This document shows, one piece after another, positions 1-22,117 of a stretch of 40,428 bases of DNA. The stretch's first letter is position 1. Each line of letters begins with the position of its first letter. A program made the position numbers and the translations under genes. The stretch comes from Syntrophobacterales bacterium (lineage in GTDB: Bacteria; Desulfobacterota; Syntrophobacteria; BM002), in assembly GCA_050123975.1 (NCBI GenBank), contig JASFGC010000002.1:1-40428 (forward strand). Reading direction: 5' to 3'. The notes under the pieces were generated by a model that saw only the letters and a list, made by a program, of their open reading frames with translations, was not told the origin of the DNA and searched no databases.

Positions 1-2951
1 CTTATCTCAGTGAAGTGGCAGGAATCGAACTAAGCCCTCGCTCTACCATTATGGTGGATCCCGTAACCTATGCTACTGGCAGGGAAGGCGTATTTGCCGG
101 CGGTGATGCCCACACCGGTCCCTGGGTAGCCATCGGGGCAGTGGCGCACGGCAGAGAAGCTGCCATTTCAATTCACCGTTTTCTGCAAGGCGAAGATCTG
201 CGAGCCGGTCGGGACCCTGCAGAAGTCTCGCAAGAAAATTTTATGCCCATTCCTGAAGACATCGTGCTCCAATCGCGCCCTGAGATGGCCAAAGCTGCCA
301 TGGAAAAAAGGCGTACTAGTTTTACCGAAGTGGAGCTTGGACTCACAGAAGAACAAGCCAGGGCCGATGCCGAAAGATGCCTGGACTGTATGATCTGCTG
401 TGAGTGCTATCAATGTGTGGAGGCCTGCCTGGCCGAAGCCGTTGTTCACGACCAGCAGCCTGTGGAAAGAGAGATTGACGTGGGGGCAGTTATTCTGGCG
501 TTAGGCGCGAAGACCTATGATCCCTCTGCCGTAGACTTGTACCTCTATGGCCAACATCCCAATGTGGTAACCAGCCTCGAGTTCGAGCGTATTCTGAGTG
601 CTTCCGGGCCCTATCAAGGCCATATGGTGCGACCGTCGGATGAGAAGGAGCCGGAAAAGATCGCCTGGCTCCAGTGCGTTGGTTCCCGCAACACCAACAA
701 TTGTGACAACGGTTATTGTTCTGGCGTTTGCTGCATGTACGCCATCAAAGAGGCGGTTGTTGCCAAAGAGCATAGCGACAAACCCTTGGACACCGCCATA
801 TTCTTTATGGACATGCGCACCTACGGAAAAGATTTCGAGAAATACTACAATCGGGCCAAAGATGAATTTGGAGTACGTTTCATCCGCTCCCGCATCCATA
901 CACTGTATCCAGTTCCTGATACCGATCAGTTGAGTATTGAGTATACAACTGAAGACGGAAAGATGGCCATCGAAACCTTCGACCTGGTGGTCCTCTCCGT
1001 TGGCATGGAGGTACAGCCGGAGGCTGTTGAACTGGCGGAAAAGCTGGGAATTGAACTCAATCATTACAACTTTACTGCCACCCACGAGTCTACTCCGGTG
1101 AATACCTCGAGGCCAGGGGTTTACACCTGCGGCATCTTCCAGGGACCCAAAGACATACCCATTTCGGTAATGGAGGCCAGTGCCGCGGCATCTGCAGCAG
1201 CAGCGGACCTGGCCGAGTCCAGAGGAACCATGGTGGAAGTATATGAGCCCCCGGTCGAACGGGACCTCAGCGGCGAACCACCCCGTATTGGTGTTTTTGT
1301 CTGCAACTGTGGCATCAATATCGGCTCCGTAGTGAACGTTCCCGATGTTGTTGAGTATGCCGAGACCTTACCGAATGTGGTCTTCACCGATGCCAACCTC
1401 TTCACCTGTTCCCAGGACACCCAAGAAAAAATGAGGGAAGCCATCGAAGAGAACAAGTTGAATAGGGTAGTAGTGGCTGCCTGCTCACCCCGCACCCACG
1501 AGCCCCTTTTCCAAGAGACTCTCAAAGCTTGCGGTCTCAACAAATATCTCTTCGACATGGCCAATATCCGCGATCAAGATTCCTGGGTCCACCAGCAAGA
1601 CCATGGAAAGGCCACAAACAAAGCCAAAGATCTTTTGAGGATGGCCGTGTCCCGAGCCTCCCTGCTGAGACCATTGGTAGAGCGACCCCTGGAGATCAAA
1701 CAGCGCGGCCTGGTAATTGGCGGTGGGGTGGCCGGCATGAACGCGGCCCTGAGCCTGGCGCACCAAGGTTTTGAGGCCGTAATAGTTGAAAAGGAGCGCG
1801 AACTTGGCGGCCTAGCGCGCCAGATTCCCCAAACCATAGAGGGGTGGGATGTTCAGAAATATCTAAATGATCTCATTGTCGAGGTCCAGGAAAATGACAA
1901 AATCGAGGTTCTTACCCAAGCTCTGGTCGTCGGCTCCAGCGGATATAAAGGCAACTTCACCACTGAATTACTGGTGGGGCCAGGTATGTACGAACGCAAG
2001 ATCGACCACGGGGCCACCATTGTGGCCACCGGGGCCGTGGAATACCAACCCAAGGAATTTCTCTACGGCGAGGATTCGAGAGTTATGACCCAGCTGGGTC
2101 TGAGCCAGCTATTGCACGAAAATGGTGACCAGGTTGAAAAGTGGAAAAGGGTGGTAATGGTTCAGTGCATTGGTTCCCGCAATGAAGAAAATCCAAATTG
2201 CAGCCGCATCTGCTGCCAGAATGCTGTCAAGAACAGTCTGGCACTGAAAAAAAGGAATCCTGATCTGGATGTCTATGTCCTCTATCGTGACATGCGCACC
2301 TACGGTCTTCTGGAGGACTACTATGGTGAAGCCAGAAGTAAAGGTGTCATCTTCGCCCGCTTCAGACTTGATCAACCGCCTGAGGTCATCGACGAGGGAG
2401 AAGATCTGAGGGTCACCTTCCTGGACCACGTGCTGGAGCGACCCGTAACCTTAACTGCGGATGCCCTCATTCTCAGCACTGCCACCTTGGCTGCAGACAC
2501 GGAAGAATTGGCATCTCTGCTGAAGGTTCCACGGGACACCGATGGTTTCTTTATCGAGGCCCACGCCAAGCTGAGACCGGTGGATTTCTCTTCCGAGGGT
2601 ATTTACCTCTGTGGTACCGCTCATAGTCCAAAACTCATTAGCGAAAGTATTGCCCAAGCACTGGCTGCTGCGGCCAGAGCCGGCTCCTTCCTGGCCAGTA
2701 CAGATATAACCATCGGCGGCATAGTTGCCCAAGTAGAAGAAAGCCGTTGTGCCGCTTGCCTGGTCTGCGTCAAGGCTTGTCCTTATGGAGTACCCACGAT
2801 AAACCAGGAAAATGTCTCGGAAATAAACGAGGCCCTCTGCCAAGGCTGTGGGATTTGCGCCTCTGAGTGTCCAGCCAAGGTTATTCAGTTGGCACACTAC
2901 GAGGATGACCAAATCAGCGCCAAGGTAGATGCCTTGTTTATAGGAGGATAG
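1..2951 (+). CDS. hdrA: HdrA-family flavoprotein, 5'-truncated by the window edge (end of a GltD-like NAD(P)H module followed by a full HdrA-like unit)
   Basis: The frame is open from nt 3. YLSEVAGIELSPRSTIMVDPVTYATGREGVFAGGDAHTGPWVAIGAVAHGREAAIS aligns with aa ~505-560 of the 1484-aa paralog at 17663-22117. HdrA hallmarks are present: QCVGSR..YCSGVCC and QCIGSRNE..CSRICC, CNCGINIG, a GGGVAGM Rossmann motif, and C-terminal CxxCxxC..CP / CxxCxxCxxxCP. TAG stop at 2949-2951. Confidence 0.85.
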   Translation, partial: YLSEVAGIELSPRSTIMVDPVTYATGREGVFAGGDAHTGPWVAIGAVAHGREAAISIHRFLQGEDLRAGRDPAEVSQENFMPIPEDIVLQSRPEMAKAAMEKRRTSFTEVELGLTEEQARADAERCLDCMICCECYQCVEACLAEAVVHDQQPVEREIDVGAVILALGAKTYDPSAVDLYLYGQHPNVVTSLEFERILSASGPYQGHMVRPSDEKEPEKIAWLQCVGSRNTNNCDNGYCSGVCCMYAIKEAVVAKEHSDKPLDTAIFFMDMRTYGKDFEKYYNRAKDEFGVRFIRSRIHTLYPVPDTDQLSIEYTTEDGKMAIETFDLVVLSVGMEVQPEAVELAEKLGIELNHYNFTATHESTPVNTSRPGVYTCGIFQGPKDIPISVMEASAAASAAAADLAESRGTMVEVYEPPVERDLSGEPPRIGVFVCNCGINIGSVVNVPDVVEYAETLPNVVFTDANLFTCSQDTQEKMREAIEENKLNRVVVAACSPRTHEPLFQETLKACGLNKYLFDMANIRDQDSWVHQQDHGKATNKAKDLLRMAVSRASLLRPLVERPLEIKQRGLVIGGGVAGMNAALSLAHQGFEAVIVEKERELGGLARQIPQTIEGWDVQKYLNDLIVEVQENDKIEVLTQALVVGSSGYKGNFTTELLVGPGMYERKIDHGATIVATGAVEYQPKEFLYGEDSRVMTQLGLSQLLHENGDQVEKWKRVVMVQCIGSRNEENPNCSRICCQNAVKNSLALKKRNPDLDVYVLYRDMRTYGLLEDYYGEARSKGVIFARFRLDQPPEVIDEGEDLRVTFLDHVLERPVTLTADALILSTATLAADTEELASLLKVPRDTDGFFIEAHAKLRPVDFSSEGIYLCGTAHSPKLISESIAQALAAAARAGSFLASTDITIGGIVAQVEESRCAACLVCVKACPYGVPTINQENVSEINEALCQGCGICASECPAKVIQLAHYEDDQISAKVDALFIGG

Positions 2952-2953
2952 AA

Positions 2954-3409
2954 ATGAAAGAGTTTGAACCGAATGTTGTCGCATTCTGCTGTAATTACTG
3001 AGCTTACTCTGCAGCGGACCTGGCAGGTTCCATGCGGCTGGATTATCCACCGAACGTGAAGATCATCAAGGTTCCTTGCACCGGCAGGGTTGATGTCATC
3101 CATATTTTGAAAGCTCTGGAGGACGGGGCGGATGGCGTTATGGTTGCAGGGTGCTTGGAGGGAGACTGCCATTACCAAAGCGGCAACCTCCGGGCCAAAA
3201 AGCGGGTGGCCCATGTGCAACATATCCTTGACCAAATTGGATTTAGTGGTGAACGGGTCGCCATGTATAACCTCTCCGCCGGTATGGGGGTGAGGTTTGC
3301 CGAGATAGCCCGGGAGGTCACCGAAAAAGTTAGGGAATTGGGACCTAACCCCATCAGAAGCGCGCTAGAAGCTTCAAGAGAGTCCACTAAGGAGGCAGTA
3401 CATGGTTAA
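2954..3409 (+). CDS. mvhD: MvhD-type (methyl-viologen-reducing hydrogenase delta subunit-like) [2Fe-2S] protein with an in-frame TGA read as selenocysteine
   Basis: ATG at 2954 with RBS AGGAGGA at 2942-2948. The frame reads MKEFEPNVVAFCCNY-TGA(2999-3001)-AYSAADLAGS and continues into the listed ORF 3032-3409 (..PCTGRVD..AGCLEGDCHY..). Total length is 456 nt, or 152 codons. The TGA aligns with the second Cys of CNWC in the paralog at 17628. Confidence 0.8.
2999..3031 (+). promoter_or_regulatory. UGA(Sec) plus a candidate bacterial SECIS hairpin
   Basis: 14 nt after the UGA lies GGACC(3016-3020)-UGGCA loop(3021-3025)-GGUUCC(3026-3031, one bulged U). The loop starts 19 nt after the UGA and contains GG. 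Confidence 0.5.
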
Positions 3410-4070
3410 GGCAAAACCAAAACCGATTGGCGAGATCATCGACTACGTAAAGGATTTCGACAAGGTACTGGTGGCTGGCTGTGACGGCTGTGTCACCGTA
3501 TGTGAAGCTGGCGGCTTGAAAGAGGTACAGGTGCTGGCCTCTTCCCTGCGGCTCTATTTTACCAAAGAGGGCGAAGGCAAGGATATCGAAGAGACCAGCC
3601 TGACTCGTCAGTGCGACAAAGAATACCTTGAGCCGCTGCTGGACAAGATTGATAACTATGATGCCGTGGTTTCCCTAGCCTGCGGTGTCGGCGCCCAGTT
3701 CATGGCGGAGTTGTACAAGGGTAAACCCATCTTCCCCGGAGTGGACACCTGCTTCATTGGCTCCACCCAGGAGCGGGGCGTATGGGTGGAGCGCTGCCAA
3801 GCCTGCGGCCAATGCATCATTGCGAGCACAGGGGGTATCTGCCCCATTGCCAGGTGTTCCAAACGAATGCTCAACGGCCCTTGTGGCGGCTCCGAGAAGG
3901 GCTCCTGTGAGGTGAGCAAGGATACTCCTTGCGGCTGGCACCTTATTTATGAAAGGTTGAAGGATCTGGAGCAGTTGGACCACTTTGAGGCCCCCACTGA
4001 TCCCAAGGACTGGACCACCAGCCGCGACGGTGGACCCCGCAAAATACTCAAAGAGGATGTGCAGCCATGA
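3402..4070 (+). CDS. metV: MetV, Cys-rich small subunit of methylene-tetrahydrofolate reductase (MTHFR C-terminal-domain family)
   Basis: Motifs AGCDGCVTVC, CQACGQC, CPIARC, NGPCGG and C..WH. The start overlaps the mvhD stop by 8 nt (ATGGTTAA) and the stop overlaps the metF start (ATGA). It is a paralog of 12331-13005. Confidence 0.8.
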   Translation: MVKAKPKPIGEIIDYVKDFDKVLVAGCDGCVTVCEAGGLKEVQVLASSLRLYFTKEGEGKDIEETSLTRQCDKEYLEPLLDKIDNYDAVVSLACGVGAQFMAELYKGKPIFPGVDTCFIGSTQERGVWVERCQACGQCIIASTGGICPIARCSKRMLNGPCGGSEKGSCEVSKDTPCGWHLIYERLKDLEQLDHFEAPTDPKDWTTSRDGGPRKILKEDVQP

Positions 4071-5005
4071 ATAAGACTACACCGAGCAAACTGGAAAAAA
4101 TCTTGGCAGAGGGACACTTGGCCGTTACTTCGGAATGCGGCCCGCCGCGAAACACTGATCTCGAAATAGTAGCGGAAAAGGCTGAGATGATTAAGGATCA
4201 CGTCGATGCCATAAATGTCACCGACAATCAGACATCAGTGGTACGGTTATGCAGCCTGGCCTCTTGCATTCGAATAAAACAGATGGGGTTGGAGCCGGTA
4301 TTGCAAATGGTAACCCGGGACCGCAACCGCATCGCCATTCAGAGTGACATCCTTGGTGCCTCCTCCTTTGGCATTAACAACATACTTTGTCTAACAGGAG
4401 ATCATCAGCAGTTCGGCGATCATCCCAATGCTGCCAATGTCTTTGATCTTGATTCCACTCAGTTGATCCAGACGGTCAAGTTGATGCGGGATGAGGGTAA
4501 GCTGCTGGGAGGCTTCGAAATGAAGAAGCGCCCTGAAATGTTCATTGGTGCAGCAGCCAACCCCTTTGCCGACCCCTACGAGATCAGGGTATCTCGTCTC
4601 GCCAAAAAGGTGGCCGCCGGTTGTCAGTTCATCCAGACCCAATGTATCTACAACATGGAGAAGTTTAAGCTCTGGATGGAGCAGCTGTGCGACCGGGGGC
4701 TGCATGAGAAGGTGGCCATTCTTGCCGGACTCACTCCCATGAAAAACGTGGGCATGGCCAAGTACATGAAAAATCGAGTTCCCGGCATTGATGTCCCGGA
4801 CGATATCATCGAGCGCCTGGCCGCTGTCCCCAAAGAAAAACAGGCAGACGAGGGTATCAAGATCTGCATTGAGCAAATCGAAGAATTAAAAGAAGTAGAA
4901 GGTATTAAGGGGTTTCATATCATGGCCATTGAATGGGAAGAAAAGGTTCCGGAGATAGTTGAGGCGGCAGGTCTTTATCCGAGACCCAAAGTGGATGGAA
5001 GCTAG
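4067..5005 (+). CDS. metF: Methylene-tetrahydrofolate reductase, MetF
   Basis: INVTDNQ, QMVTRDRNR, LCLTGDHQ and FIQTQCIYN are typical of anaerobe-type MetF. It is translationally coupled to metV. Confidence 0.85.
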   Translation: MNKTTPSKLEKILAEGHLAVTSECGPPRNTDLEIVAEKAEMIKDHVDAINVTDNQTSVVRLCSLASCIRIKQMGLEPVLQMVTRDRNRIAIQSDILGASSFGINNILCLTGDHQQFGDHPNAANVFDLDSTQLIQTVKLMRDEGKLLGGFEMKKRPEMFIGAAANPFADPYEIRVSRLAKKVAAGCQFIQTQCIYNMEKFKLWMEQLCDRGLHEKVAILAGLTPMKNVGMAKYMKNRVPGIDVPDDIIERLAAVPKEKQADEGIKICIEQIEELKEVEGIKGFHIMAIEWEEKVPEIVEAAGLYPRPKVDGS

Positions 5006-5594: not shown

Positions 5595-6605
5595 ATGACG
5601 AAAATCAGGCTTAGAGGCCTCAAACTCCTGGAAGGGGGCGCTCAGGTGCTCTCTTCCGACCTTGGTGGTGGCCAAAATCCCCTGGGAGCAGGCATATGTA
5701 CCCCTCTGGCACTGAACAAAATTAATATCACCTTTCTCACTCATCTCTCCCCCCGTAAGAGCGCAAGCTCTGACACTGCCCTGTGTATGGAAGGTTCTGC
5801 CGGCCGCGCCGTAACCTCTCTGATTGGCACTTACGGTGGGAGCGACCTCGAAGTGCATCTCCATGAGGCTGTCAACACCTTCTCTATCTTCGTCCATGAT
5901 CAAAGACCCCGAGTAACCGGCTCACTCCTTGGAGCTTTGGCGAGAGAAAAGATAGAGTTGCTGGGTCTAGCGAGCTCACCTTCGGCAGTATCGTCCGTTG
6001 TGTCTTCTGCTCATACAGAAGAAACCATCGGTGCCTTCTTTGAGGCCTTTGAATTTCCGGCCTATGGCTCACCCTCCGATTGGTACGCTGCCTATGAAGG
6101 TAAAGAGCACCTCCTCCGCAAGATAATAGCCTCTTATCAAGAACAGGTCATCAAAATATATGATATCGCTCAGGAATCTGACCTCGATCTTTGGAGTTTA
6201 GTTCTGCCCAACTCTGAGTTGAGCAATCTAGGTACTACTTTATCATCCTTGGATCGTTTGGGAGTCAGAATGCCCTTCGTGGTGGCAGTGCAATCCTCTG
6301 AACCGGGCTTACGCTTCGGCTTTTGCTTTGCCAGGGCCAGGGCAAAGGAGATCAAGCACGCTTTCACACGCCACTTACGCAAAACAAATCTAGCACATGA
6401 TCCAGAAGTGGCAGCGTTGTTCATCCATGGTCCACATTTTGGCGACCGCTATGGCATCGCCAGCACATTTGTCGAAGGACTGCAGCGTGCCGGCGTGGCT
6501 ATTTTAGCCATGAGCTGCACCGTCTCTTCCATTTCTGCAATTATCGCTGAGATTGAATTGGATTCAGCTATGAGGACGCTGGACAAGATCTTTCAGAGGC
6601 ACTAG
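5595..6605 (+). CDS. Hypothetical protein with ACT-like repeats (resembles the aspartokinase regulatory domain)
   Basis: The C-terminal LFIHGPHFGDRYGIASTFVEGLQRAGVAILAMSCTVSSISAII resembles ACT domains. The RBS is weak and the start is uncertain. Confidence 0.4.
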   Translation: MTKIRLRGLKLLEGGAQVLSSDLGGGQNPLGAGICTPLALNKINITFLTHLSPRKSASSDTALCMEGSAGRAVTSLIGTYGGSDLEVHLHEAVNTFSIFVHDQRPRVTGSLLGALAREKIELLGLASSPSAVSSVVSSAHTEETIGAFFEAFEFPAYGSPSDWYAAYEGKEHLLRKIIASYQEQVIKIYDIAQESDLDLWSLVLPNSELSNLGTTLSSLDRLGVRMPFVVAVQSSEPGLRFGFCFARARAKEIKHAFTRHLRKTNLAHDPEVAALFIHGPHFGDRYGIASTFVEGLQRAGVAILAMSCTVSSISAIIAEIELDSAMRTLDKIFQRH

Positions 6606-6634
6606 CCCGGATAAATCATGAATTATCCGGGCTA
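6603..6634. terminator. Perfect 12-bp hairpin between convergent genes (possible bidirectional terminator)
   Basis: TAGCCCGGATAA (6603-6614), loop ATCATGAA, then TTATCCGGGCTA (6623-6634). No clear U-tract on either side. Confidence 0.4.
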
Positions 6635-6690
6635 GAATGTTCGGATCTAAGGCATGGACAAGATTGTGGGTCGCGCCTGATCAGGGGCTG

Positions 6691-7296
6691 CTACTTGGGT
6701 GAGGCTATGCTCCCCAGGTAGCGGCTGATGGCACCGTCATACTCATGGGTTAGCTGGAAAACCTTCTTGGCCAAGCGAAATCTGGTCTCAAGGCTGAGCT
6801 GACCTCCGCTGGCCTGCATCTCGTCAAGGATGGCGCCATAGTCTCCTGGATTCACCACTACAGCCACATCCTGATAGTTTTTTGCAGCTGCGCGGAGCAT
6901 GGTGGGTCCACCGATGTCAATGCTCTCTACGGCTTCTTCCAGGGTGCAATCCTCTCTAGCCACGGTCTTTTCAAAGGCATAAAGATTAACCACCACCATG
7001 TCGATGACCTTGAGATGGTGGGAGGCCATGGTTTTCATATGGTCTGGGTTGCTCCGTTGCGCTAGGATTCCTGCATGCACTTTGGGGTGGAGGGTCTTTA
7101 CCCGCCCATCAAGCATTTCTGGAAACCCGGTAAAGTCGGAAACGTCTTGCACCGTGACCCCACCTTCCCTGAGCATGCTGGCTGTGCCGCCGGTGGAGAG
7201 CACCTCTACTCCGAAGTCTTGGAGCTTCTGAGCGAACTCAACCAGCCCGGATTTATCAGTTACACTCAAAATTGCCCGTTGGATTTTGCGCTGCAT
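6691..7296 (-). CDS. Standalone IMP cyclohydrolase / MGS-like domain (PurH N-terminal domain only)
   Basis: [42 protein letters not shown] and [12 protein letters not shown] match the PurH N-terminal domain. The protein ends at the domain boundary. The ATG at 7296 has RBS AAAGGGGGGAG. The longer listed ORF (to 7389) runs into a repeat. Confidence 0.75.
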
Positions 7297-7311
7297 ACTC
7301 CCCCCTTTTTC

Positions 7312-7390
7312 ACTAGGCACTGCAAGGCGACGCGGTGAAACGGCGACACGGAGACGCGGCGAAAAAGCCAGAAGTTGAGAGGAACTCAAT
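7312..7390 (+). repeat. 79-nt interspersed intergenic element, copy 1 (four NNCGGNGA octamers plus AAAAAGCCAGAAGTT)
   Basis: ACTAGGCACTG...GGCGACGCGGTGAAACGGCGACACGGAGACGCGGCGAAAAAGCCAGAAGTTGAGAGGAACTCAAT. It is 69/79 identical (hand aligned) to 33707-33785. Both copies also share CTCTATGCTC further downstream (7439-7448 and 33914-33923). Confidence 0.85.
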
Positions 7391-7496
7391 TTCGAATACT
7401 TTTCTCCTCAATTCTGGATTCTGATTCCTGGCTCCTTACTCTATGCTCCATGCCCCTTAACAACGGACTACGGACGACTTACAACTGACATCCCTG

Positions 7497-8267
7497 TCAG
7501 GCCGCTTCCTCAAGTAAAAGTCTAGTGAAAATTTCGTTGGCCGCTTGGAGAGCCACTGATTGCGGCGGTAACTCCACGGTGGGCTTCCCTTCCAAATCGA
7601 ACTCGTAGATGAGATCGTCTTCAGGGATGGTGCTCACTGAGTTGGGATCGAATGTTTCCGTCTCCTTGGCGACCAATTTTGCCAGTTTGTTTCTATACTG
7701 GTTGACCACAAGGTATTTACGTCCCACTCTTATGTTGAGTTCGTCTACCAAATCATAAATCCGGCGGGCTGAAAGAATGCCTCGTCGACTGGTATCACTC
7801 ACCACCAGAAGCAAATCAATGTCTTTAGTAGTCAGTCGGCTAAAATGCTCCATCCCCGCCTCATTGTCAACAACCAGGTAGGGGTAGTTGCGCATCAACC
7901 GTTCGATGAAAGTGCTGAGCAGATTATTGGCGGCACAGTAACATCCCGGCCCTTCGGGACGACCCATGACTATGAGGTCGAATCCTTTGGCCTCTACCAG
8001 GGCCTGCTCAACCTTCATCTCCATCCACATATCCTTGGTCATCCCCACCGGGACGTCCTTCTTCATCATCTCCCTGGCATCCCCAAGTGTCTCTTCCACT
8101 TGGAGGCCAAGTACCTCGTTTAAATTTGAATTAGAATCAGCATCTACAGCCAATATGGGGCTCATGTCGTTCTCTTTAAGAAAGCGAACAAGCAGGCCGG
8201 CAAGGGTGGTCTTGCCGGTTCCGCCTTTCCCTGCCAGGGCAATAGTGTATCCTTGTTTTCTAACCAT
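7497..8267 (-). CDS. cooC: CooC/AcsF-type Ni-insertion ATPase (CO dehydrogenase maturation factor, MinD/ParA family)
   Basis: Deviant Walker A GKGGTGKTT, AVDADSNSNL, and the GPGCYCAANN CxC metal motif characteristic of CooC. Confidence 0.8.
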   Translation of the reverse strand: MVRKQGYTIALAGKGGTGKTTLAGLLVRFLKENDMSPILAVDADSNSNLNEVLGLQVEETLGDAREMMKKDVPVGMTKDMWMEMKVEQALVEAKGFDLIVMGRPEGPGCYCAANNLLSTFIERLMRNYPYLVVDNEAGMEHFSRLTTKDIDLLLVVSDTSRRGILSARRIYDLVDELNIRVGRKYLVVNQYRNKLAKLVAKETETFDPNSVSTIPEDDLIYEFDLEGKPTVELPPQSVALQAANEIFTRLLLEEAA

Positions 8268-8315
8268 TTGTAGTCCTGAGTTAATCGCCTCCCAAGGGGA
8301 GGGTCGATTAAAGTT

Positions 8316-8771: not shown

Positions 8772-8849
8772 GGTACCTCTCCCCACAAGTATATTTTACC
8801 TCACTGGTTATACAGGGCTCGATCTTCACCACAGAACGAACGGCACATA

Positions 8850-9050: not shown

Positions 9051-9115
9051 GGTTGCAGCTACGCTGCTCCCTGCTCTCTGCGGCTACCTCCGCTTTATTG
9101 CTACTTATGCTTGGT

Positions 9116-10414: not shown

Positions 10415-10459
10415 TCATCTCTCCTAAAAAGATCTTTCATGGGCAGAGGAACTCCTTCA

Positions 10460-13005: not shown

Positions 13006-13131
13006 TGGCTGTCCCTCCTTGCCGGACCATCTTTGAAAACTGACGATCGGCAGTGTGGATTATCTTGTAAACGAAAAGTCTAACTGTCTTGCGAAAGCAG
13101 ATGCTCTGCTCACCCAAAGACCGATCGCCGC

Positions 13132-13598: not shown

Positions 13599-16500
13599 TT
13601 ATGATTTCCCTGCCGCCGCTTCTCCAATCTCTTTCAAAAGCAATGCGTCAGTCTTGGCAATCAGCTGTTTATCGGTGAAGTGCTGCAGGCTGATGGCCTT
13701 GCCCGGGCATTCGGCTACACAGGCGCCGCAACCCCGACAGCCGGCCGGATCAATAACAGCGTACCCATCTTCGCCGATATAGGGCACCTCGAAGGGACAG
13801 GTGCGCACACAGGTAAGGCAAACGGCACATTTGTCCGGCTCAACCACCGCCTTCACCGCACCCAAAGTGATCACGTCCTTGGCCAGAACCGTAGAAGCCC
13901 GGGCCGCCGCCGCTTGGGCCTGGGCAATTGCCTCATCAATGGACTTGGGATAGTGGGCCAGACCGCAGAGGAAGAGGCCGTCGCTGCCAAAATCCACCGG
14001 CCGCAGCTTCATGTGGGCTTCCAGGAAAAAACCTTCTGCATTCTGGTTGACCTTGAGGGCACTAACAACCTCTCTGGCCTCATTGGGTAAGACAGCCGAA
14101 GCCAACACCAGAGCATCCGCCGGAATCACCAAATCTCTACCCAGGATGGGATCATGGATCTGGACCTTCAAGCTCCCGCTCCCGTTGCTCACCTGCGGCT
14201 TCGTGTCCAGGGAATAGCGAATAAAAAGAACTCCTTTGCCGCGGGCCTCCTTGTAAAGATCCTCGCGAAAGCCGTAGGTACGGATATCCCGGTAGAGGAT
14301 GTAGACATCCATATCGGGGTTGAGCTCCTTGAGCTGGAGGGCGCTCTCCATGGAGTGGGTGCAACATATCTTGGAGCAGTAAGGTCTCTCTTCGTCCCGA
14401 GAGCCAACGCACTGGATAAAGACTGTACGGTTCACATCTTTGAAGCCATTGCCGTCCTCTTTCAAACGGGAATCCAACTCCAGGGCAGTGAGTACCCGGT
14501 CGTCTTCTCCATAGAGATATTCTGTGGGCTGGAGCTCTTTGCCACCCGTGGCCACAATGCTGACGCCGTGCTGCACGGTGGTTTTTTGTTCAGGCTCATC
14601 AACCTTCTCCAAAATGGTATCAAAATTACCCACAAAGCCGGTGTTTGCCGCCAGTTGGGTGTTGGTGTGCACAGTAATATGCTCATGGCTCCCTACCCGG
14701 GAAACCAGATCCTTGACGTAGGAGCCGATATCTTCACCCTTCCAGGTTTTCCGGAGCTTGAGGGCGTTGCCACCCAGCTCACCGGTCTTCTCCACCAGAT
14801 GCACTGGAAAGCCCTGGTCGGCCAGGGTCAAGGCCGCCACCATACCCGCCACTCCTCCGCCTACTACCAGGGCCGCCTTGTTGAGGCCGAGGACCGTCTG
14901 TTCCAGGGGATCTAGCAAGGCGGCTTTGGCCACGGCGCCACGCACCAGGTCTTTGGCCTTTTCCGTAGCCCCTTCCGGATCGTTCTGGTGTACCCAAGTG
15001 TCTTGATCACGGATGTTGGCCATTTCAAAAAGGTATTGGTTCAGTCCTGCCTCCCGGATGGTTTCCTGGAACATGGGTTCATGGGTCCTGGGTGAACAGG
15101 AGGCCACCACCACCCGGTTGATGTCTTTTTCCTGGATCACCTCGCGAATCTTCTCTTGGGTGTCCTGGGAACAAGTAAAGAGGTTGTCTTCCACGTGCAC
15201 CACATGAGGCAAATTTTTGGCATAGTCCCGCACCGCCGGCACATCAGCATAGCCGCCGATGTTGATACCGCAATTGCAGACAAACACGCCCACCCGCGGC
15301 TCCTCCCCGGCCACCAAGCGCTCATCGGGAAGTTCCTTGGTCTTGGTCAGGGCAAAGCGGCTTTCCACCAGAGGGGCGGCGGCAGCAGCAGCAGCGGCAC
15401 TGGCCTCCATCACCGAAATGGGGATATCCTTGGGGTCGCGGAAGGCGCCGCACACGAAGATACCTTCTCTGGAGGTCTTTACCGGTTCGAAGCTGCTGGT
15501 CTCAGCAAAATTGTGCTCATTGAGCTCGATCCCCAGACGTTCAGCCAGCTCCACCGTCCGCTTGGAGGGTTGAAAGCCGGAGGAGAGCACCACCATGTCA
15601 AATTCCTCTTCCAGGGACTTGCCCTCTTCATCGGTGTAGACAATCTTCAGGCTGCCCTCTTCCACCGGGTCAACGGTGTGGACCCTGGAGCGAATAAAGC
15701 GCACCCCGTGCTCTTCCTTGGCGCGCTCGTAGTATTTTTCAAAGTCCTTGCCATAAGTGCGCATATCCATAAAGAATATGGCGGTGTCCAGGGGCTCGTG
15801 GCTGTGCTCCTTGGCAATCACCGCCTCCTTGATGGCGTACATGCAACAGACCGCCGAGCAGTAACTGTTATCACAGTGATGAATGTCTCGGGATCCCACG
15901 CATTGCAGCCAGGCGATGCTTTTGGGCTCTTCCCGGTCCCAAGGCCGCATAAGGTGTCCCTGATAGGGACCGGAGGCACTGAGAATCCTTTCGAATTCGA
16001 GACTGGTGACCACGTTGGGGTGGCCGGCGTAGGCATAGGTGTCGAATGAGGCTGGATTAAAGACCTCATTGCCGGTGGCCAAAATAACAGCGCCCACATC
16101 CAGTGTCGACCTCCGCTCCTCTTCGTCGTAAACGATGGCCTTGGCTAGACAAAGCTTCTCGCACAGGCCGCAACCGATACAGGTCTCCCGGTCAATGGCA
16201 TAGGCGAGAGGAACGGCCTGGGGATACTTGATGTAGGTGGCAGTGCGCCGGTCGAGGCCCTCGTTAAATTCGTTTACTGCAGTCACCGGACAGTGCTGTT
16301 TACAAACGCCACAACCTGTGCACTTCTCCGGGTCGATAAAGCGAGGGCGATTTACCAAATGGGCCTGAAAGCTCCCCACCTCACCCTCTACAGAGTCCAA
16401 CTCGGTGTTGCTAATAATGTTGATGTTCAGGTGTCGTCCTGCATCCACTAGCTTGGGGGAGACAATACACATGGAGCAGTCATTGGTGGGGAAGGTTTTG

Positions 16501-16658
16501 TCCAGCTGGGGCATAAGTCCCCCGATACTGGGGGAAGCGTCCACCAGATGGACGTAAAACCCGGATTCGGCCAAATCAAGGGAGGCCTGAATGCCGGCAA
16601 TGCCCGCACCAACTACCATGACCGAACCAACTTTGGAATTTCCGCTCTTGGCTGCCAT
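13599..16658 (-). CDS. hdrA: Tandem HdrA-HdrA-like flavoprotein (1019 aa, no GltD module)
   Basis: There are two HdrA units, each with a Rossmann motif (VVGAGIAG and VVGGGVAGM) and QCVGSRD..YCS..CC. Also DKTFPTNDCSMC, CNCGINIGG, VVVASCSPRTHE and C-terminal CxxCxxC..CP / CxxCxxCxxxCP. RBS GAGAGGA. Confidence 0.85.
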   Translation of the reverse strand: MAAKSGNSKVGSVMVVGAGIAGIQASLDLAESGFYVHLVDASPSIGGLMPQLDKTFPTNDCSMCIVSPKLVDAGRHLNINIISNTELDSVEGEVGSFQAHLVNRPRFIDPEKCTGCGVCKQHCPVTAVNEFNEGLDRRTATYIKYPQAVPLAYAIDRETCIGCGLCEKLCLAKAIVYDEEERRSTLDVGAVILATGNEVFNPASFDTYAYAGHPNVVTSLEFERILSASGPYQGHLMRPWDREEPKSIAWLQCVGSRDIHHCDNSYCSAVCCMYAIKEAVIAKEHSHEPLDTAIFFMDMRTYGKDFEKYYERAKEEHGVRFIRSRVHTVDPVEEGSLKIVYTDEEGKSLEEEFDMVVLSSGFQPSKRTVELAERLGIELNEHNFAETSSFEPVKTSREGIFVCGAFRDPKDIPISVMEASAAAAAAAAPLVESRFALTKTKELPDERLVAGEEPRVGVFVCNCGINIGGYADVPAVRDYAKNLPHVVHVEDNLFTCSQDTQEKIREVIQEKDINRVVVASCSPRTHEPMFQETIREAGLNQYLFEMANIRDQDTWVHQNDPEGATEKAKDLVRGAVAKAALLDPLEQTVLGLNKAALVVGGGVAGMVAALTLADQGFPVHLVEKTGELGGNALKLRKTWKGEDIGSYVKDLVSRVGSHEHITVHTNTQLAANTGFVGNFDTILEKVDEPEQKTTVQHGVSIVATGGKELQPTEYLYGEDDRVLTALELDSRLKEDGNGFKDVNRTVFIQCVGSRDEERPYCSKICCTHSMESALQLKELNPDMDVYILYRDIRTYGFREDLYKEARGKGVLFIRYSLDTKPQVSNGSGSLKVQIHDPILGRDLVIPADALVLASAVLPNEAREVVSALKVNQNAEGFFLEAHMKLRPVDFGSDGLFLCGLAHYPKSIDEAIAQAQAAAARASTVLAKDVITLGAVKAVVEPDKCAVCLTCVRTCPFEVPYIGEDGYAVIDPAGCRGCGACVAECPGKAISLQHFTDKQLIAKTDALLLKEIGEAAAGKS

Positions 16659-16749: not shown

Positions 16750-16855
16750 AAACAAATTCTCAACTTCAGATGTGTGATATGAGGTTCGACATTTTCCTCG
16801 GATTTAGTATCCCACATCTCACATCTCACATCTCACATCCAGGTTAAATTTGTTT
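16750..16855. repeat. Intergenic repeat block bracketed by a 9-bp inverted repeat and containing a (CACATCT)x4 heptamer array
   Basis: AAACAAATT (16750-16758) is complementary to AATTTGTTT (16847-16855). The CACATCT array at 16813-16840 has last unit CACATCC. Upstream, AGATGTGTGATATGAGG (16768-16784) is partly complementary to the array. The word CGAAACAAATT is shared with the 8850-9050 block. Confidence 0.8.
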
Positions 16856-16869: not shown

Positions 16870-17628
16870 TTATAGAAAGATCCCAGCAAACTTCGGGGTC
16901 CGTCCTTCGTAACCGTGCAGTTCCACCTGTCCCTGCCCCTCCAGAGCCGTGAGCAGATTGGAAACGTTCTGAATACCAATGTTCGTCCGGGAATCGATCT
17001 CCCTTACGGACAAAGGTCCATCCCGCAGGCTCAGGTAGATCAAGCTCTTCTCATACTCGCTCTTTATATTCTCATCCAGCAGCTTCAGATAAGCATCCGC
17101 TTTTAGCTTTTCGCCGTAGACGTTGCCTTTCTCCGTAAGCTGTCGCTGCATTCCCATGAGCCAACGCACAGTCTCGGTTTCCAGAGTCCTAAGCATGGCT
17201 TCCAGGTTGAACTTGTTGGCCTCGGCGTCAAAGGGGCCCATTGCTTTAATCTGATCAGTTGTTTCAGTAACCAGCTCGGCAAACAGCTGCCCTTCGGCAG
17301 CGGAAACCCAAGCTAACTGCAACCGCTCCCGACCGATGCCGGCAAGATCCAGCAGATTCTGAGTAGCAAAGATCTTCTTTTCCGCGTGGAGATTACCTTC
17401 CAGGTAATGACATTCTCCTGGGTGTCAGCCGAAAACCAACGAGGCATCGTAGCCGGACTGCAGCGCTTTGACGATGAAAACCGGATCAACCCGGCCGGAA
17501 CACATGGTGCGGATAACTCGAATGGTAGATGGGTACTGGAATCTGGACACTCCGGCCAAATCCGCTCCAGCATAGGCACACCAGTTGCACAAAAACGCCA
17601 ACATCTTGGGTTCGAAACCTTCGCTCAT
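16870..17628 (-). CDS. mvhD: MvhD domain with an in-frame TGA (Sec) fused to a ~115-aa C-terminal extension ending in a winged-helix-like segment
   Basis: On the minus strand the frame reads MSEGFEPKMLAFLCNWCAYAGADLAG..MCSGRVD..SLVFG-TGA(17427-17425)-HPGECHYLEGNLHAEKKIFATQNLLDLAGIGRERLQLAWVSAAEGQ.., joining the listed ORFs 17425-17628 and 16870-17322. Total 759 nt, or 253 codons. The TGA aligns with the Cys of GC(L/H)xGDCHY in the other copies. Confidence 0.8.
17388..17427 (-). promoter_or_regulatory. UGA(Sec) plus a candidate SECIS hairpin
   Basis: On the minus strand: UGA, 16 nt, AUUACC (17408-17403), loop UGGAA (17402-17398), GGUAAU (17397-17392). An outer GGAG (17418-17415) pairs with CUCC (17391-17388). 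The loop starts 22 nt after the UGA. Confidence 0.55.
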
Positions 17629-17662: not shown

Positions 17663-20600
17663 TTATTCCACCGCAGCAATCGCCGCCATCAGCTGGCCGT
17701 CTTTAAAATGGAGCATATCGATGGCCTTCTGCGGACAAGTGGAGGCACACACGCCACAGCCCTTGCACGAGGCCGGTATATTGACAGCTCGATACCCTTT
17801 GCCCTCCACCTCTTCCAGTTGAATTGCGCCAAAAACGCACACCGCCTCGCACAAGCCGCAACCGATACAGGCCTCCGCATCCACGGCAGAGACGATGGGC
17901 TCCACCATGACATATTTTTGGGAAAGTACGGTGACCGCCCGACCTGCTGCCGCTTGCGCCTGGGCTATGCTCTCTTCCAGTGGCTTGGGATAATGGGCCA
18001 GCCCGCAGACAAATACCCCGTCGGTGGGGAAATCAACCGGTCTGAGCTTCATGTGCGCTTCCAAGAAGAACTTGTCATCGGTTAAGGGCAATTTGAAAGA
18101 CTTGGCAATGCCCTCATGGTCTGTAGGATGGATTGCCGTGGCCAGGTTGATAAAATCGGGCTCAATGGTTATTGGCCAGCCCAGGATGTGATCCGTCACC
18201 GTTACCTTTAACCCCCCGTTTCCATCCACCTCCACCTTCGGCTTGTCGTCGAGGCTGTAGCGAATGAAGAGAACACCTTTGGCACGGGCTTGTTGGTAGA
18301 GGTCCTCCCTGGGGCCATAGGTGCGGAGATCCCGGTAGAGGACGAACACATCCATTTCCGGATTGATCTCTTTGAGCTGCAAAGCCGACTGTACCGAGTG
18401 GGTGCAGCAGATCTTGGAACAGTAAGGTCTTTCCGGCTCCCGAGAGCCAACACACTGAATGAAAACCGCTGCTTTGGCCGTTTTGACCATCTTCGGATCG
18501 GCCTCAATGGCCTCCCCCAGCTCGTGCCAACGAAACACCCGGTCACTCTTACCGTAGAGATATTCATCCGGCGCTATCGACTGGGCCCCGGTGGCGAGGA
18601 TGGCAACACCATGCTCGATCTGCCGCTCACCGGCACCATTAGCCACTGTGCTGACAAAGTTACCTACGAAGCCACTGACGTTCTTGAGCTCAGTTTCGGT
18701 GAGAACCTCGACATTGTCATGTCCTTCCACCTTGCTCACTAGGTCGGCCACAAAAGCGGACACATCTTCACCCTTCCAGGTACGTTTGATGTGCAGGGCA
18801 TTACCACCAAGCTGTTCCTTCTTTTCCACCAGGTAGCTCTTGAAGCCTTGCTCGGCCAGATTGAGGGCCGCGGACATGCCGGCCACCCCACCACCAATAA
18901 CGAGTGCTGCCGGGTTCAGATCCACCCGAATCTCCTGAATGGGCTCAAGCAAGGAGGCCCTGGCAACGGCCATCCGTACCAAGTCCTTGGCCTTTTCCGT
19001 GGCCTTTTCGGGCTCGCTTTGGTGCACCCAGGAGTCCTGGTCGCGGATGTTGGCCATCTCAAAGAGGAATCTGTTCAGGCCAGCTTCCCTGATTGTTTCT
19101 TGAAACAAAGGCTCGTGAGTTCTAGGGGTACAGGCGGCCACCACTACTCGGTTCAAGTTGTTTTCTAGGATGGCCTCCTTCATGATCTCCTGGGTATCCT
19201 GGGAGCAGGTGAACAGGTTCTCTGCCACATAGGCTACGTTGGGCAGGGTTTCCGCAAAGGCGCGCACCGCCGGAACATCTACGATGCCGCCAATATTCAC
19301 TCCGCAATTGCAGACAAACACACCGATGCGGGGATCCTTCAGGTCAATGGAAGTCTCTTCCATAAAGGTCTTTTCTTTGACCTGTGAGCCTCGCACATCC
19401 GCCAGAAGGGATTGGGACGCCGCTGCCGCCGCGCTGGCCTCCATCACCGAGTAGGGAATATCCTTGGGACCGCTGAAAGCGCCACAGACAAAAATCCCCG
19501 GTTTGGAGGTGGCCACTGGCGCAAAAGAGCTGGCAGTAACAAACTGGTCTTCGTCCAGTTCAATGCCGAGTTTCTCAGCCAGATCGACCGTTGCAGCCGA
19601 GGTCTCCATACCCACGGAAAGCACAACCATGTCGAAAGTCTCTTTTTCGATCTTACCGTCCTCGGTGGTGTAGGTGATCTCCAGGTCACCGCTGTCGCCC
19701 ACCGGGTCGACGCTGTGCACTCGCGAGCGGACAAAACGCACTCCGATCTCGTCCTCGGCTCGCATGTAGTACTTGTCAAATTCCTTGCCATAGGTTCGCA
19801 TATCCATAAAAAAGATGGCGGTATCCAAAGGTTGCTTGCTATGCTCTTTGGCAATTACCGCCTCCTTGATGGCGTACATGCAGCAGACGCCAGAACAGTA
19901 GCCGTGATCGCACTGATTGATGTCACGGGAGCCCACACATTGTAGCCAGGCGATTTTCTTGGGTTCTTTGGCATCCGAAGGCCGAATGAGATGACCTTCG
20001 TAAGGGCCGGATGCACTGAGGATACGTTCAAATTCCATACTGGTAACCACATTGGGATATCTGGCGTAATTGTAGGTGTGGTATTGACTGGGGTTGAAGG
20101 CTTGAAAGCCGGGCGCGGCTATGATTGAGCCGACATCGAGGGTGACTGTGGTTTCCAGCATACTGTGATCCACGGCTTCCGCCTTGCAGGCGGTCACGCA
20201 TTCAAGGCATTCGCAACAGGACATGCAGTTGAGACATTTCTCCGCCTCGGCTCTGGCCTGTTCTTCGGTGAGCCCAAGCTCCACTTCGGCAAAATTTGTC
20301 CGCCTCTCGTCACTGGCCAGTGTGGGCATTTCAGCCCGAGCGCTCATCTCCAGATCTTCGGGTATTGCCACGAAGTTCTCCTGAGGGAACTCCACGGGTT
20401 CCCGACCTGCCCTCAGGTCTGCACCCCGCAGGTAGCGTGAAATAGAAATGGCTGCTTCCCTCCCATGCGCTACCGCACCAATAGCCACCCAGGGCCCGGT
20501 GTGGGCATCGCCACCAGCAAACACTCCCTCCACAGTGGTGGCAAAGGTCACAGGATCGGCGTCAATGGTACCCCAGCGGCTGAGCGCCAGCCCTGAATCG

Positions 20601-22117
20601 TCAGTGAGGAAAGCGGAATCTGGAGTTTGTCCGATGGCCGGGAGCACCCAATCGGTGTCCACGATAAATTCACTGCCGGGGACTGGTACCGGGCGACGCC
20701 TCCCGGAAGAATCCGGCTCACCCAGCTCCATTTTGATACACTGAATCCCTACTACCTTGTTGTCTTTGGTGAGAATTTGTTGGGGTGCGGTGAGGTACTG
20801 AATCTCGATGCCCTCGGCCAGAGCATCTTCAATCTCGTGTTCGTAAGCAGGCATTTCAGTCCGGGTGCGGCGATAGAGAATACTGACCTTCTCCGCCCCC
20901 AAGCGCAGAGCAGAGCGGGCCGCATCAATGGCCACATTGCCGCCGCCTACGATAACCGTTCTTCCCTCAAGTTTGCTCAACTCACCCTGATTGACTCGGC
21001 GGAGAAAATCAACACTGGAAACAACTCCCTCTCCATCTTCGCCAGGAATGTTAATCTGCAGGTCTTTGTGGGCACCGATTGCAAGATAAATCGCCTTGTA
21101 GCCCTCTTTGAAAAGACCGTCAAAGGTCACATCCCGACCCAAAGCAGTATTGAGCTTAATCTCCACACCCAAGCGGGTTATGGCCCGAATCTCTTTGTCC
21201 AAAACCTCAGGGGGCAAGCGATAGTCGGGAATACCTAACCGCAACATGCCGCCGGCTACTGACTGAGACTCAAATACCGTGGACTCATAGCCCTCCAGGG
21301 CAAGAAAATGGGCGGCAGTGAGACCCGCCGGACCGGAGCCGATGATGGCTACCTTTTCCTCCCGCTTTTCAATCTCGGGCACAGGAATATCTTCAATATC
21401 CACCTGATCAGCCACAAACCGCTTCAAGGCGCAAATGGAAATGGGCTCATCCACCTCACCCCGCCTGCAGGCCGTCTCACAGGGATGGGGACAGATGCGG
21501 CCGATGGTGCCTGGAAAGGGCAGGGTCCGGAGGATGACCTCCATGGCTTCCCGGTATTTGCCCTCGGCAATAAGAGCCACGTAGGCATGGGCGTTGACAT
21601 GGTTGGGACAGGCATTGGTGCAAGGAGAACGATCGAGCTTGTCGATTATGTAGCCACCGGGAATCGCCTGGGCGTAAGGTTTGTAGGTGGCTTTTCGGGC
21701 GCCAAGGGCGAGATCAAACTCGCTGGGTAAAGTCACGGGGCAGACCTCGGCACAATCCCCGCAGCCGGTGCACTTGTCCAGATCGATGTAACGGGGATTC
21801 TGCCGAATCGTTACCTGAAAACTACCCTGTTCCCCAGCCACGCCTTCTACTTCGGCGCAGGTAAGCAGGTTTATGTTGGGATGGCGACCACACTCCACCA
21901 ACTTGGGGGACAAAATACACATGGAGCAATCATTGGTGGGAAAGGTCTTGTCCAACTGCGCCATAACTCCGCCAATGGCCGGTGAACTTTCAACCACATG
22001 AACGTAGTAACCGGAATCTGCCAAATCCAAGGCTGCCTGAACACCGGCAATTCCGCCACCCACCACCATAACCGAGCCAACCAGTTCGCTGCTCGACCGG
22101 GCCTTTTCAGCGCACAT
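17663..22117 (-). CDS. hdrA: Large HdrA-like fusion protein (HdrL-type): HdrA N-terminal domain, inserted GltD/NfnB-like NAD(P)H oxidoreductase module, then tandem HdrA units (1484 aa)
   Basis: The N-terminus VMVVGGGIAG..DKTFPTNDCSMC is HdrA-like. Aa ~160-570 (CPHPCETACRRG, VAIIGSGPAGLTAA, GGMLRLGIPDYRLP, VIVGGGNVAIDAAR, GVFAGGDA) resemble the glutamate synthase small subunit. The rest carries two HdrA QCVGSR..CC units. RBS AGGAGTG. Confidence 0.85.
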   Translation of the reverse strand: MCAEKARSSSELVGSVMVVGGGIAGVQAALDLADSGYYVHVVESSPAIGGVMAQLDKTFPTNDCSMCILSPKLVECGRHPNINLLTCAEVEGVAGEQGSFQVTIRQNPRYIDLDKCTGCGDCAEVCPVTLPSEFDLALGARKATYKPYAQAIPGGYIIDKLDRSPCTNACPNHVNAHAYVALIAEGKYREAMEVILRTLPFPGTIGRICPHPCETACRRGEVDEPISICALKRFVADQVDIEDIPVPEIEKREEKVAIIGSGPAGLTAAHFLALEGYESTVFESQSVAGGMLRLGIPDYRLPPEVLDKEIRAITRLGVEIKLNTALGRDVTFDGLFKEGYKAIYLAIGAHKDLQINIPGEDGEGVVSSVDFLRRVNQGELSKLEGRTVIVGGGNVAIDAARSALRLGAEKVSILYRRTRTEMPAYEHEIEDALAEGIEIQYLTAPQQILTKDNKVVGIQCIKMELGEPDSSGRRRPVPVPGSEFIVDTDWVLPAIGQTPDSAFLTDDSGLALSRWGTIDADPVTFATTVEGVFAGGDAHTGPWVAIGAVAHGREAAISISRYLRGADLRAGREPVEFPQENFVAIPEDLEMSARAEMPTLASDERRTNFAEVELGLTEEQARAEAEKCLNCMSCCECLECVTACKAEAVDHSMLETTVTLDVGSIIAAPGFQAFNPSQYHTYNYARYPNVVTSMEFERILSASGPYEGHLIRPSDAKEPKKIAWLQCVGSRDINQCDHGYCSGVCCMYAIKEAVIAKEHSKQPLDTAIFFMDMRTYGKEFDKYYMRAEDEIGVRFVRSRVHSVDPVGDSGDLEITYTTEDGKIEKETFDMVVLSVGMETSAATVDLAEKLGIELDEDQFVTASSFAPVATSKPGIFVCGAFSGPKDIPYSVMEASAAAAASQSLLADVRGSQVKEKTFMEETSIDLKDPRIGVFVCNCGVNIGGIVDVPAVRAFAETLPNVAYVAENLFTCSQDTQEIMKEAILENNLNRVVVAACTPRTHEPLFQETIREAGLNRFLFEMANIRDQDSWVHQSEPEKATEKAKDLVRMAVARASLLEPIQEIRVDLNPAALVIGGGVAGMSAALNLAEQGFKSYLVEKKEQLGGNALHIKRTWKGEDVSAFVADLVSKVEGHDNVEVLTETELKNVSGFVGNFVSTVANGAGERQIEHGVAILATGAQSIAPDEYLYGKSDRVFRWHELGEAIEADPKMVKTAKAAVFIQCVGSREPERPYCSKICCTHSVQSALQLKEINPEMDVFVLYRDLRTYGPREDLYQQARAKGVLFIRYSLDDKPKVEVDGNGGLKVTVTDHILGWPITIEPDFINLATAIHPTDHEGIAKSFKLPLTDDKFFLEAHMKLRPVDFPTDGVFVCGLAHYPKPLEESIAQAQAAAGRAVTVLSQKYVMVEPIVSAVDAEACIGCGLCEAVCVFGAIQLEEVEGKGYRAVNIPASCKGCGVCASTCPQKAIDMLHFKDGQLMAAIAAVE

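Follow-up and report, generated by a model that had tools for sequence, protein, structure and literature searches.

The stretch analysed here (hereafter the window) comprises 40,428 nt of the forward strand of contig JASFGC010000002.1 (assembly GCA_050123975.1) from a Syntrophobacterales bacterium of the order BM002, and it carries a Wood-Ljungdahl methyl-branch cluster of an uncultured Syntrophobacteria (BM002) sulfate reducer. On the minus strand the genes run in the order fhs-folD-hdrA3-mvhD3-hdrA2-mvhD2-metV2-metF2-cytB-hdrD-c3-cooC-purH', so that the gene of a methylenetetrahydrofolate reductase (MTHFR), metF2, is followed by a predicted membrane module made up of a dihaem cytochrome b (cytB), an HdrD-like subunit (an HdrC-HdrB fusion) and a periplasmic tetrahaem cytochrome c3. 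With about even confidence, and from gene content and order, we propose that this module replaces the soluble HdrB and HdrC of the Moorella-type MTHFR complex and acts as the functional partner of the MTHFR; our confidence in any particular electron acceptor is lower. Genes were mapped by Pfam, NCBIfam and PDB-sequence searches of the window proteins, and every gene described in an earlier sequence-only reading of this DNA was found where that reading had placed it.

The cytochrome b (10460-11110, minus strand) is a NarI-type dihaem membrane subunit with several hydrophobic segments and invariant H79, H92, H175 and H193; it narrowly passes the NCBIfam TmcC model (NF045723; 241.7 vs a cut-off of 240) and falls below the HmcE model (203 vs 275). 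The HdrD-like iron-sulfur protein (9116-10414, minus strand) combines an N-terminal HdrC match, with a dicluster domain, and a C-terminal CCG match, that is, HdrC-like and HdrB-like parts, and scores below the cut-offs for HmcF (465 vs 750), TmcB (NF045724; 415.9 vs 735) and DsrK (217 vs 400). The periplasmic cytochrome c3 (8316-8786, minus strand; PF02085; probable ATG start at 8771) has a signal peptide and four CXXCH motifs, though it scores only 84.8 on the TmcA model (NF045722), below the cut-off of 114. Under the same conditions, HmcE and HmcF controls from two genome loci, L093 (which holds a full hmcABCDEF operon) and L027, exceed their cut-offs. No TmcD gene is present with the module, whose genes stand in the order C-B-A (cytB-hdrD-c3) with cooC next, and no HmcA-D genes are present upstream of it. 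With the HdrD-like protein as query, the PDB sequences yielded a single distant chain, 9ojn, and no match to a DsrK or TmcB structure. Because of the sub-threshold scores, the missing TmcD and the C-B-A order, the module is placed in the Tmc/Hmc/DsrMK superfamily but outside its three named complexes, and by these sequence measures it is a separate subfamily there. A plain Tmc operon was rejected on the same three grounds, the HmcEF controls having passed, and on the separate clade of the HdrD-like proteins described below. The sequence-only reading had allowed that the module might group with classical Tmc/Hmc and have nothing to do with MetF; scores, tree and synteny all speak otherwise.

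The HdrD-like protein has the marks of the DsrK/TmcB/HmcF superfamily: two [4Fe-4S] motifs, a single CCG motif and the motif T/GE(C/U)GH, here with selenocysteine (Sec) in place of Cys. The TGA codon (9659-9661) falls in this last motif, read as TE(U)GH, which is shared by all homologues examined (more than 100). This in-frame UGA sits where close relatives have Cys, and the two residues swap at this position even among close relatives (Cys at locus L001, Sec at L002). In DsrK, HmcF and TmcB, which have one CCG motif, the Cys of T/GECGH is strictly conserved and probably catalytic (PMC10861901). Since this residue is kept, here as Sec, the HdrD-like subunit is likely competent for thiol/disulfide chemistry, for example reduction of DsrC, which the sequence-only reading had not considered. 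Hairpins with small G-containing loops start 14-20 nt past each UGA of the window's selenoprotein genes, and their energies, checked for Sec insertion elements, are no better than those of shuffled sequence; the Sec assignments are accordingly based on Cys/Sec alternation and on domain continuity. The hdrD-c3 spacer (8787-9115) is 329 nt long here vs 29-61 nt in some relatives; it holds direct and inverted copies of a AAATCCGAA-type motif (TRF array at 9028-9050) and may represent a small inserted repeat element.

The MTHFR genes next to the module (set 2, all on the minus strand) encode MetF2 (11408-12334; PF02219, 7e-41), MetV2 (12331-13005; PF12225, 2e-34), the selenoprotein MvhD2 (13132-13569; TGA at 13524-13522) and HdrA2 (13599-16658; 1019 aa). 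Upstream of these lie the selenoprotein MvhD3 (16870-17628; TGA at 17427-17425) and HdrA3 (17663-22117; 1484 aa), then FolD (22463-23350) and the formate-tetrahydrofolate (THF) ligase Fhs (23507-25270), all on the same strand. HdrA3 is of the GltD-fused type (HdrL): a TrxR-like domain, split by a GltD/NfnB-like NAD(P)H-FAD module (residues 163-641), precedes a complete HdrA unit (927-1484). By profile searches and alignment, HdrA2 has the build of HdrA3 without the GltD insertion. MetF and MetV are encoded together twice in the window, the two MetF proteins being 62% identical, and an MvhD (PF02662) with a large GltD-insertion HdrA stands directly upstream of metVF, as in the Moorella type. 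All three mvhD genes contain an in-frame TGA (Sec), across which the PF02662 domain runs on.

The sequence-only reading had seen no hdrB or hdrC in the window, and this held. A six-frame pattern search of the window and of L081, a contig of identical sequence that reaches 6 kb farther left, found no complete CCG motif other than that of the HdrD-like protein, and neither gene was found in the window or in the 6 kb past its left edge, so that a soluble pair hidden just outside, which the same reading had named as fatal to its proposal, is not there. Coding sequence fills nearly the whole window. With one full CCG motif and no intergenic gap longer than 684 nt, the absence of hdrB and hdrC from the window is real. 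The same reading had described the only CCG protein as membrane-associated; it is the sole one with a full motif, and it has no membrane segment of its own, its association with the membrane being suggested by the neighbouring cytochrome b.

A cytochrome b profile scan over one genome per GTDB species yielded 80 loci, to which the window proteins were mapped. In the clade of the window (cytochrome b identity of at least 81%), the order hdrL-mvhD-metV-metF-cytB-hdrD-c3-cooC-purH' is present in all 12 loci with upstream sequence (L001-L012), so the succession of metF, cytB and the HdrD-like gene, whose conservation the sequence-only reading had put forward as a check, is kept throughout these species-level relatives. 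All 12 are metagenome-assembled genomes (MAGs) of uncultured Syntrophobacteria or 'Deltaproteobacteria', and two of them are BM002 MAGs treated as sulfate reducers in PMC10686091. In a sister clade with a 228-aa cytochrome b (49-50% identity), cytB-hdrD occurs without c3 and is convergent to metF-metV-mvhD-hdrL; this arrangement is found in 5 of the 7 loci whose downstream sequence is long enough, and the outer flanks vary between loci. The sister-clade proteins are 66-71% (MetF), 68-72% (MetV), 73-76% (MvhD) and 62-66% (HdrD-like) identical to their counterparts in and beside set 2 of the window, which they resemble more than set 1 of the window does. In a neighbour-joining tree of HdrD-like proteins, the window clade and the clade with the 228-aa cytochrome b are sisters, apart from the HmcF controls and from the loci linked to fhs-folD. 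The latter (L018 and L021, about 55% identity) carry an isolated five-gene cluster, fhs-folD-cytB-hdrD-c3, with unrelated flanks.

The closest cultured orthologues of MetF2 (69-74% identity) belong to Syntrophobacterales and Desulfarculales. Desulfoglaeba alkanexedens and Desulfacinum hydrothermale have a contiguous mvhD(Sec)-metV-metF-cooC-purH' array, 69-74% identical to set 2 and lacking the module, and both have a divergent hdrL-hdrB-like-hdrC-like-gcvH-like operon 5 kb upstream of the metF array. Desulfarculus baarsii has fhs-hdrL-metV-metF with neither the module nor hdrBC nearby. In the window clade the module is placed exactly at the metF|cooC junction of this otherwise conserved array. 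Because the module stands at that junction without hdrBC, and the module-free relatives have hdrBC beside hdrL, the pattern is one of displacement. Chance adjacency was rejected, since the linkage of module and metF recurs in three arrangements. Comparative genomics thus supports a functional link, the association of module and metF exceeding simple inherited synteny.

Two side observations concern these arrays. In the window clade, and likewise in the cultured Desulfoglaeba and Desulfacinum, the metF cluster is followed by cooC and a truncated purH (200-232 aa). The hdrL-hdrB-like-hdrC-like operon of these two (L106:1-4673 and L108:1-4399) ends in a 300-aa GcvH-domain protein that resembles the lipoate-binding partners of sulfur-oxidiser Hdr-like systems and may hint at a dithiol substrate of bacterial Hdr modules.

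The spacer between metF2 and cytB (11111-11407, minus strand; 297 nt) contains a 10-bp hairpin that lacks a T-run and directly follows the metF2 stop codon (11369-11336), a promoter-like element consisting of TTTACA (11170-11165) and TATAAA (11147-11142) at a spacing of 17 nt, and a strong ribosome-binding site (GAGGAG) before cytB. Across 12 relatives, conservation within the spacer is confined to the promoter-like block (TTCACATG...). A sigma-70 scan found no promoter in 6600-13200, and the -35/-10-like element emerged only when relatives were aligned; a consensus scan found no terminator in this spacer, and a sigma-54 promoter was not found in the spacers of the minus-strand cluster. The sequence-only reading had pointed to this interval as a possible transcript boundary; a conserved promoter-like element and a hairpin are there, whereas a terminator was not found. 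The spacer thus weakens the idea of a single operon and leaves that of a single function as it was.

One of the closest known systems is the MetFV-HdrABC-MvhD complex that Mock et al. (2014; summarised in PMC5861303 and PMC9430772) described for Moorella thermoacetica, whose HdrA of 1487 aa has an additional TrxR-like domain into which a GltD NAD(P)H/FAD module is inserted (PMC9430772). The window shares with it the order hdrA-mvhD-metV-metF, an HdrA of about 1485 aa with a GltD-interrupted TrxR-like domain and the same MetV and MetF Pfam families, but lacks hdrB and hdrC, has selenoprotein MvhDs and an extra HdrA-MvhD pair, and carries the membrane module after metF. With TmcABCD and HmcABCDEF of Desulfovibrio and with DsrMK(JOP), the module has in common a NarI-type dihaem cytochrome b, a periplasmic c3-type cytochrome and a cytoplasmic iron-sulfur protein with two [4Fe-4S] motifs, one CCG motif and T/GECGH; it differs in its sub-threshold scores, the lack of TmcD, the C-B-A order, Sec in place of the catalytic Cys, the Wood-Ljungdahl setting and its separate clade. 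In HdrDE of cytochrome-containing methanogens a fused HdrD likewise stands in for soluble HdrBC on a membrane cytochrome b linked to a lipid-soluble carrier, but the methanogen HdrD has two CCG motifs and a heterodisulfide substrate (PMC10861901), whereas the window protein has one CCG motif and Sec, a cytochrome c3 and an HdrA/MetFV context. Marine Chloroflexi have a fused HdrC-HdrB in a metVF-hdrA-mvhD cluster (hdrA-hdrCB(fusion)-mvhD-metVF; PMC5736913), in another lineage and with no cytochrome b or c partner described. Desulfobacterium autotrophicum HRM2 has a GltD-fused HdrA (HdrL) followed by mvhD, and Sec in MvhD and HdrD-type proteins, but PMC2702500 does not link those genes to metF and a cytochrome b/HdrD module; HdrL, Sec-containing MvhD and HdrD, and Tmc variants were already described there.

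Biochemical studies of Sporomusa ovata (PMC9430772) and Thermacetogenium phaeum (PMC6895022) have led to the proposal of a membrane- or quinone-linked MTHFR activity, no membrane subunit being known. Both share with the window a MetFV-Hdr-MvhD type MTHFR, and for them an exchange with cytochrome b or quinones and a bifurcation to quinone and NAD+ have been proposed; the S. ovata enzyme, however, is described as loosely attached, and T. phaeum has hdrBC beside a periplasmic formate dehydrogenase, whereas the window has a dedicated membrane module next to metF, seen here at the level of genes. The sequence-only reading had proposed an MTHFR wired through HdrA and MvhD to the membrane module: the genomic linkage to metF lends this partial support, the idea of a membrane- or quinone-coupled MTHFR was already in print for these two organisms, and what is new is the adjacent, genetically encoded candidate membrane anchor. 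A full-text literature search, with many subscription papers outside its coverage, found no description of metF beside a cytochrome b/HdrD module.

Under the proposed mechanism, MetF and MetV would exchange electrons with the methyl-/methylene-THF couple (E0' -200 mV) and pass them through the [2Fe-2S] cluster of MvhD to the flavin of HdrA/HdrL. The HdrD-like subunit would occupy the HdrBC position beside HdrA; it is proposed there because HdrD is the fused equivalent of HdrC and HdrB (PMC2702500). One branch would then lead by way of both [4Fe-4S] clusters in the HdrD-like subunit and the b haems to menaquinone (MK; about -70 mV), for whose futalosine route the window encodes MqnE, and/or the periplasmic cytochrome c3, while the GltD/NfnB-like insertion of HdrL would supply a site for NAD(P)+/NAD(P)H. 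The overall reaction would be 2 CH3-THF + MK + NAD(P)+ <-> 2 CH2-THF + MKH2 + NAD(P)H, in the oxidative and the reductive direction. With potentials of -200 mV for methylene-/methyl-THF, about -70 mV for menaquinone and -320 mV for NAD(P) (PMC5861303), it would lie near equilibrium, since -70 and -320 mV average about -195 mV. The scheme is like the bifurcation discussed by Kremp et al. for S. ovata with ubiquinone (PMC9430772). The cytochrome c3, encoded in the window clade and not in the sister clade, could link the enzyme to the periplasmic cytochrome pool in either direction, for periplasmic H2 or formate metabolism or for a membrane-potential-assisted export as postulated for T. phaeum, and the HdrD-like subunit may, at its Sec/non-cubane-cluster site, offer a further port for thiol/disulfide exchange, for example with DsrC. 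We infer a direct coupling of MTHFR and module, with menaquinone, periplasmic cytochromes or DsrC as the candidate partner. Somewhat short of even confidence, and so tentatively, we extend this to the view that a dedicated respiratory-type module (cytB, the Sec-containing HdrD-like protein and, in some, c3) docks onto HdrL/HdrA-MvhD-MetVF and renders the MTHFR of sulfate reducers and syntrophs membrane-energy-coupled, in one of two forms: bifurcation to menaquinone and NAD(P)+, or membrane-potential-driven electron export to periplasmic cytochromes.

Several observations weigh against a partnership of module and MTHFR. The conserved -35/-10-like element and the hairpin mean that the module may be its own transcription unit, with or without read-through, and in the sister clade the metF unit and the module are certainly separate transcripts, since they are convergent. 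About 60 of the 80 genome loci with cytB-hdrD modules have no metF nearby, metF is absent at 2 of the 7 sister-clade loci, and the trees are neighbour-joining trees without support values. The next-sister group has other partners: at L104 (L104:9001-12544) the order is cytB-hdrD(Sec)-hdrC-hdrB, and because separate hdrC- and hdrB-like genes follow the module there, membrane modules of this kind pair with different soluble Hdr-type proteins. Genes for hdrBC could lie elsewhere in the genome, as in T. phaeum, and the strictly conserved residue of T/GE(C/U)GH, in DsrK, TmcB and HmcF the proposed catalytic Cys of DsrC-trisulfide reduction (PMC10861901), suggests an enzyme that reduces a substrate instead of a mere wire.

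These points lead to two other explanations. The module could be an independent Tmc/Hmc-like complex of sulfate respiration, working between periplasmic cytochromes or menaquinol and cytoplasmic DsrC and lying beside metF by co-regulation or inherited gene order, while the MTHFR would use only NAD(P)H and ferredoxin, or else an hdrBC pair from another part of the genome. Such a complex would fit a cytochrome b that reaches the TmcC cut-off, subunits whose best matches are HmcF/TmcB and TmcA, a T/GE(C/U)GH motif with a single CCG motif as in DsrK, TmcB and HmcF (PMC10861901), a promoter-like element of its own upstream of cytB, a family most of whose members are not beside metF, and BM002 MAGs treated as sulfate reducers (PMC10686091). 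We nevertheless hold it to be unlikely: the HdrD-like protein and c3 stay far under the TmcB, HmcF, DsrK and TmcA cut-offs in a test that the HmcEF controls pass, the TmcD gene is absent and the order is C-B-A, and the linkage to orthologous metF operons persists in the sister clade even though the orientation has changed there and c3 has been lost. Relative to the cultured relatives, moreover, the module was inserted precisely between metF and cooC, and a separate linkage to fhs-folD also exists. Quite improbable, in our estimate, is a cytoplasmic short-circuit in which HdrA, MvhD and MetFV feed electrons of methyl-THF to the Sec-containing CCG site, which would reduce DsrC-trisulfide or a different protein disulfide, for instance that of a lipoyl or GcvH-like carrier, with cytB and c3 only an alternative inlet or outlet. 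The synteny applies to it as much as to the favoured reading, the catalytic Sec/Cys is strictly conserved in the family, and the GcvH-like protein that ends the hdrL-hdrB-hdrC operon of the cultured relatives hints at a protein-bound dithiol substrate; but profile searches found no DsrC or GcvH-like gene in the window, the potential of DsrC-trisulfide is not established, and the retained membrane anchor and periplasmic cytochrome would be left unexplained. A membrane module that takes the place of HdrBC beside the MTHFR remains the explanation we favour.

A second set of MTHFR genes opens the window on the plus strand (set 1). It encodes the C-terminal 982 aa of HdrA1 (3-2951; identified by Pfam and cut by the window start), the selenoprotein MvhD1 (2954-3409; PF02662, 1e-41; TGA at 2999-3001 in the motif CCNYU), MetV1 (3402-4070; PF12225, 7e-37) and MetF1 (4067-5005; PF02219, 2e-38). 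HdrA1, whose full-length gene encodes 1490 aa in contig L081, aligns to residues 503-1483 of HdrA3 at 56% identity and is likewise of the GltD-fused (HdrL/Moorella) type, so that the GltD fusion which the sequence-only reading ascribed to HdrA3 is correct but is not confined to that protein. Immediately upstream of hdrA1, some 2.2 kb to the left of where the window begins (L081:3505-4380), is the gene of a third MTHFR paralogue (291 aa; 34% identity to MetF2). In L081 it comes after genes for a histidine kinase, a sigma-54 activator and a response regulator, and the sequence GGGCACAAGGTTTGCT, which resembles a sigma-54 site, occurs upstream of the response regulator (L081, about 3018-3033). 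Because of these regulators and this site, set 1 may be under sigma-54 two-component control, unlike set 2. The position of Sec differs among the MvhD paralogues, being in an N-terminal CC-x-Y-U in MvhD1 and MvhD2 and in G-U-HPGECHY in MvhD3, and the MvhD1 position is also found in the MvhD of Desulfoglaeba and Desulfacinum. MvhD3 has a C-terminal extension of about 120 aa that matches no family. The mvhD3-hdrA2 pair seems to be inserted: most relatives go from hdrL to mvhD-metV-metF, and L003 appears to share the arrangement of the window. The spacer between mvhD3 and hdrA2 contains a heptamer tandem repeat (ATCTCAC, 4.4 copies; 16809-16839).

Four genes separate set 1 from the membrane module: a response regulator, an ACT-domain protein, the truncated PurH and CooC. 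CooC (7497-8267, minus strand) is a nickel-insertion ATPase of the CODH/ACS type (carbon monoxide dehydrogenase/acetyl-CoA synthase) with a CYC motif (PDB 3kje, CooC, E = 1.5e-21). By profile searches, PurH (6691-7389, minus strand) consists of the MGS domain and the start of AICARFT, that is, the IMP-cyclohydrolase part only, so that the Wood-Ljungdahl cluster includes a stand-alone PurH N-domain. The remainder of the window comprises dnaA-dnaN-gyrB-gyrA, housekeeping genes and, at the end, mqnE. The Wood-Ljungdahl cluster directly adjoins dnaA-dnaN-gyrB-gyrA (25271-33711) and so lies beside the probable replication origin region; DnaA boxes, counted with the E. coli consensus, were not enriched and formed no clear cluster. 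The futalosine-pathway menaquinone gene reported at 39367 by the sequence-only reading is indeed that of aminofutalosine synthase MqnE (39367-40428, plus strand, running off the window end; TIGR03700, 468.1 vs an equivalog cut-off of 434.55). A 247-aa open reading frame antisense to it (39442-40185, minus strand) has no family match and is probably spurious.

A decades-old question of the Wood-Ljungdahl pathway is in what way cells link the methyl-/methylene-THF couple, at -200 mV, to energy conservation; a second question is its natural electron partner in organisms with cytochromes and quinones. The locus names concrete candidate subunits for a membrane link, and the linkage of module and metF recurs in a sister clade in another orientation. 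Close cultured relatives, which carry the same metF cluster with soluble hdrBC instead of the module, offer a natural comparison. If the favoured explanation is true, the module would be the kind of membrane anchor whose existence has been postulated for S. ovata and T. phaeum, and the ATP and redox bookkeeping of complete acetate oxidation and of autotrophy in abundant sediment sulfate reducers would change.

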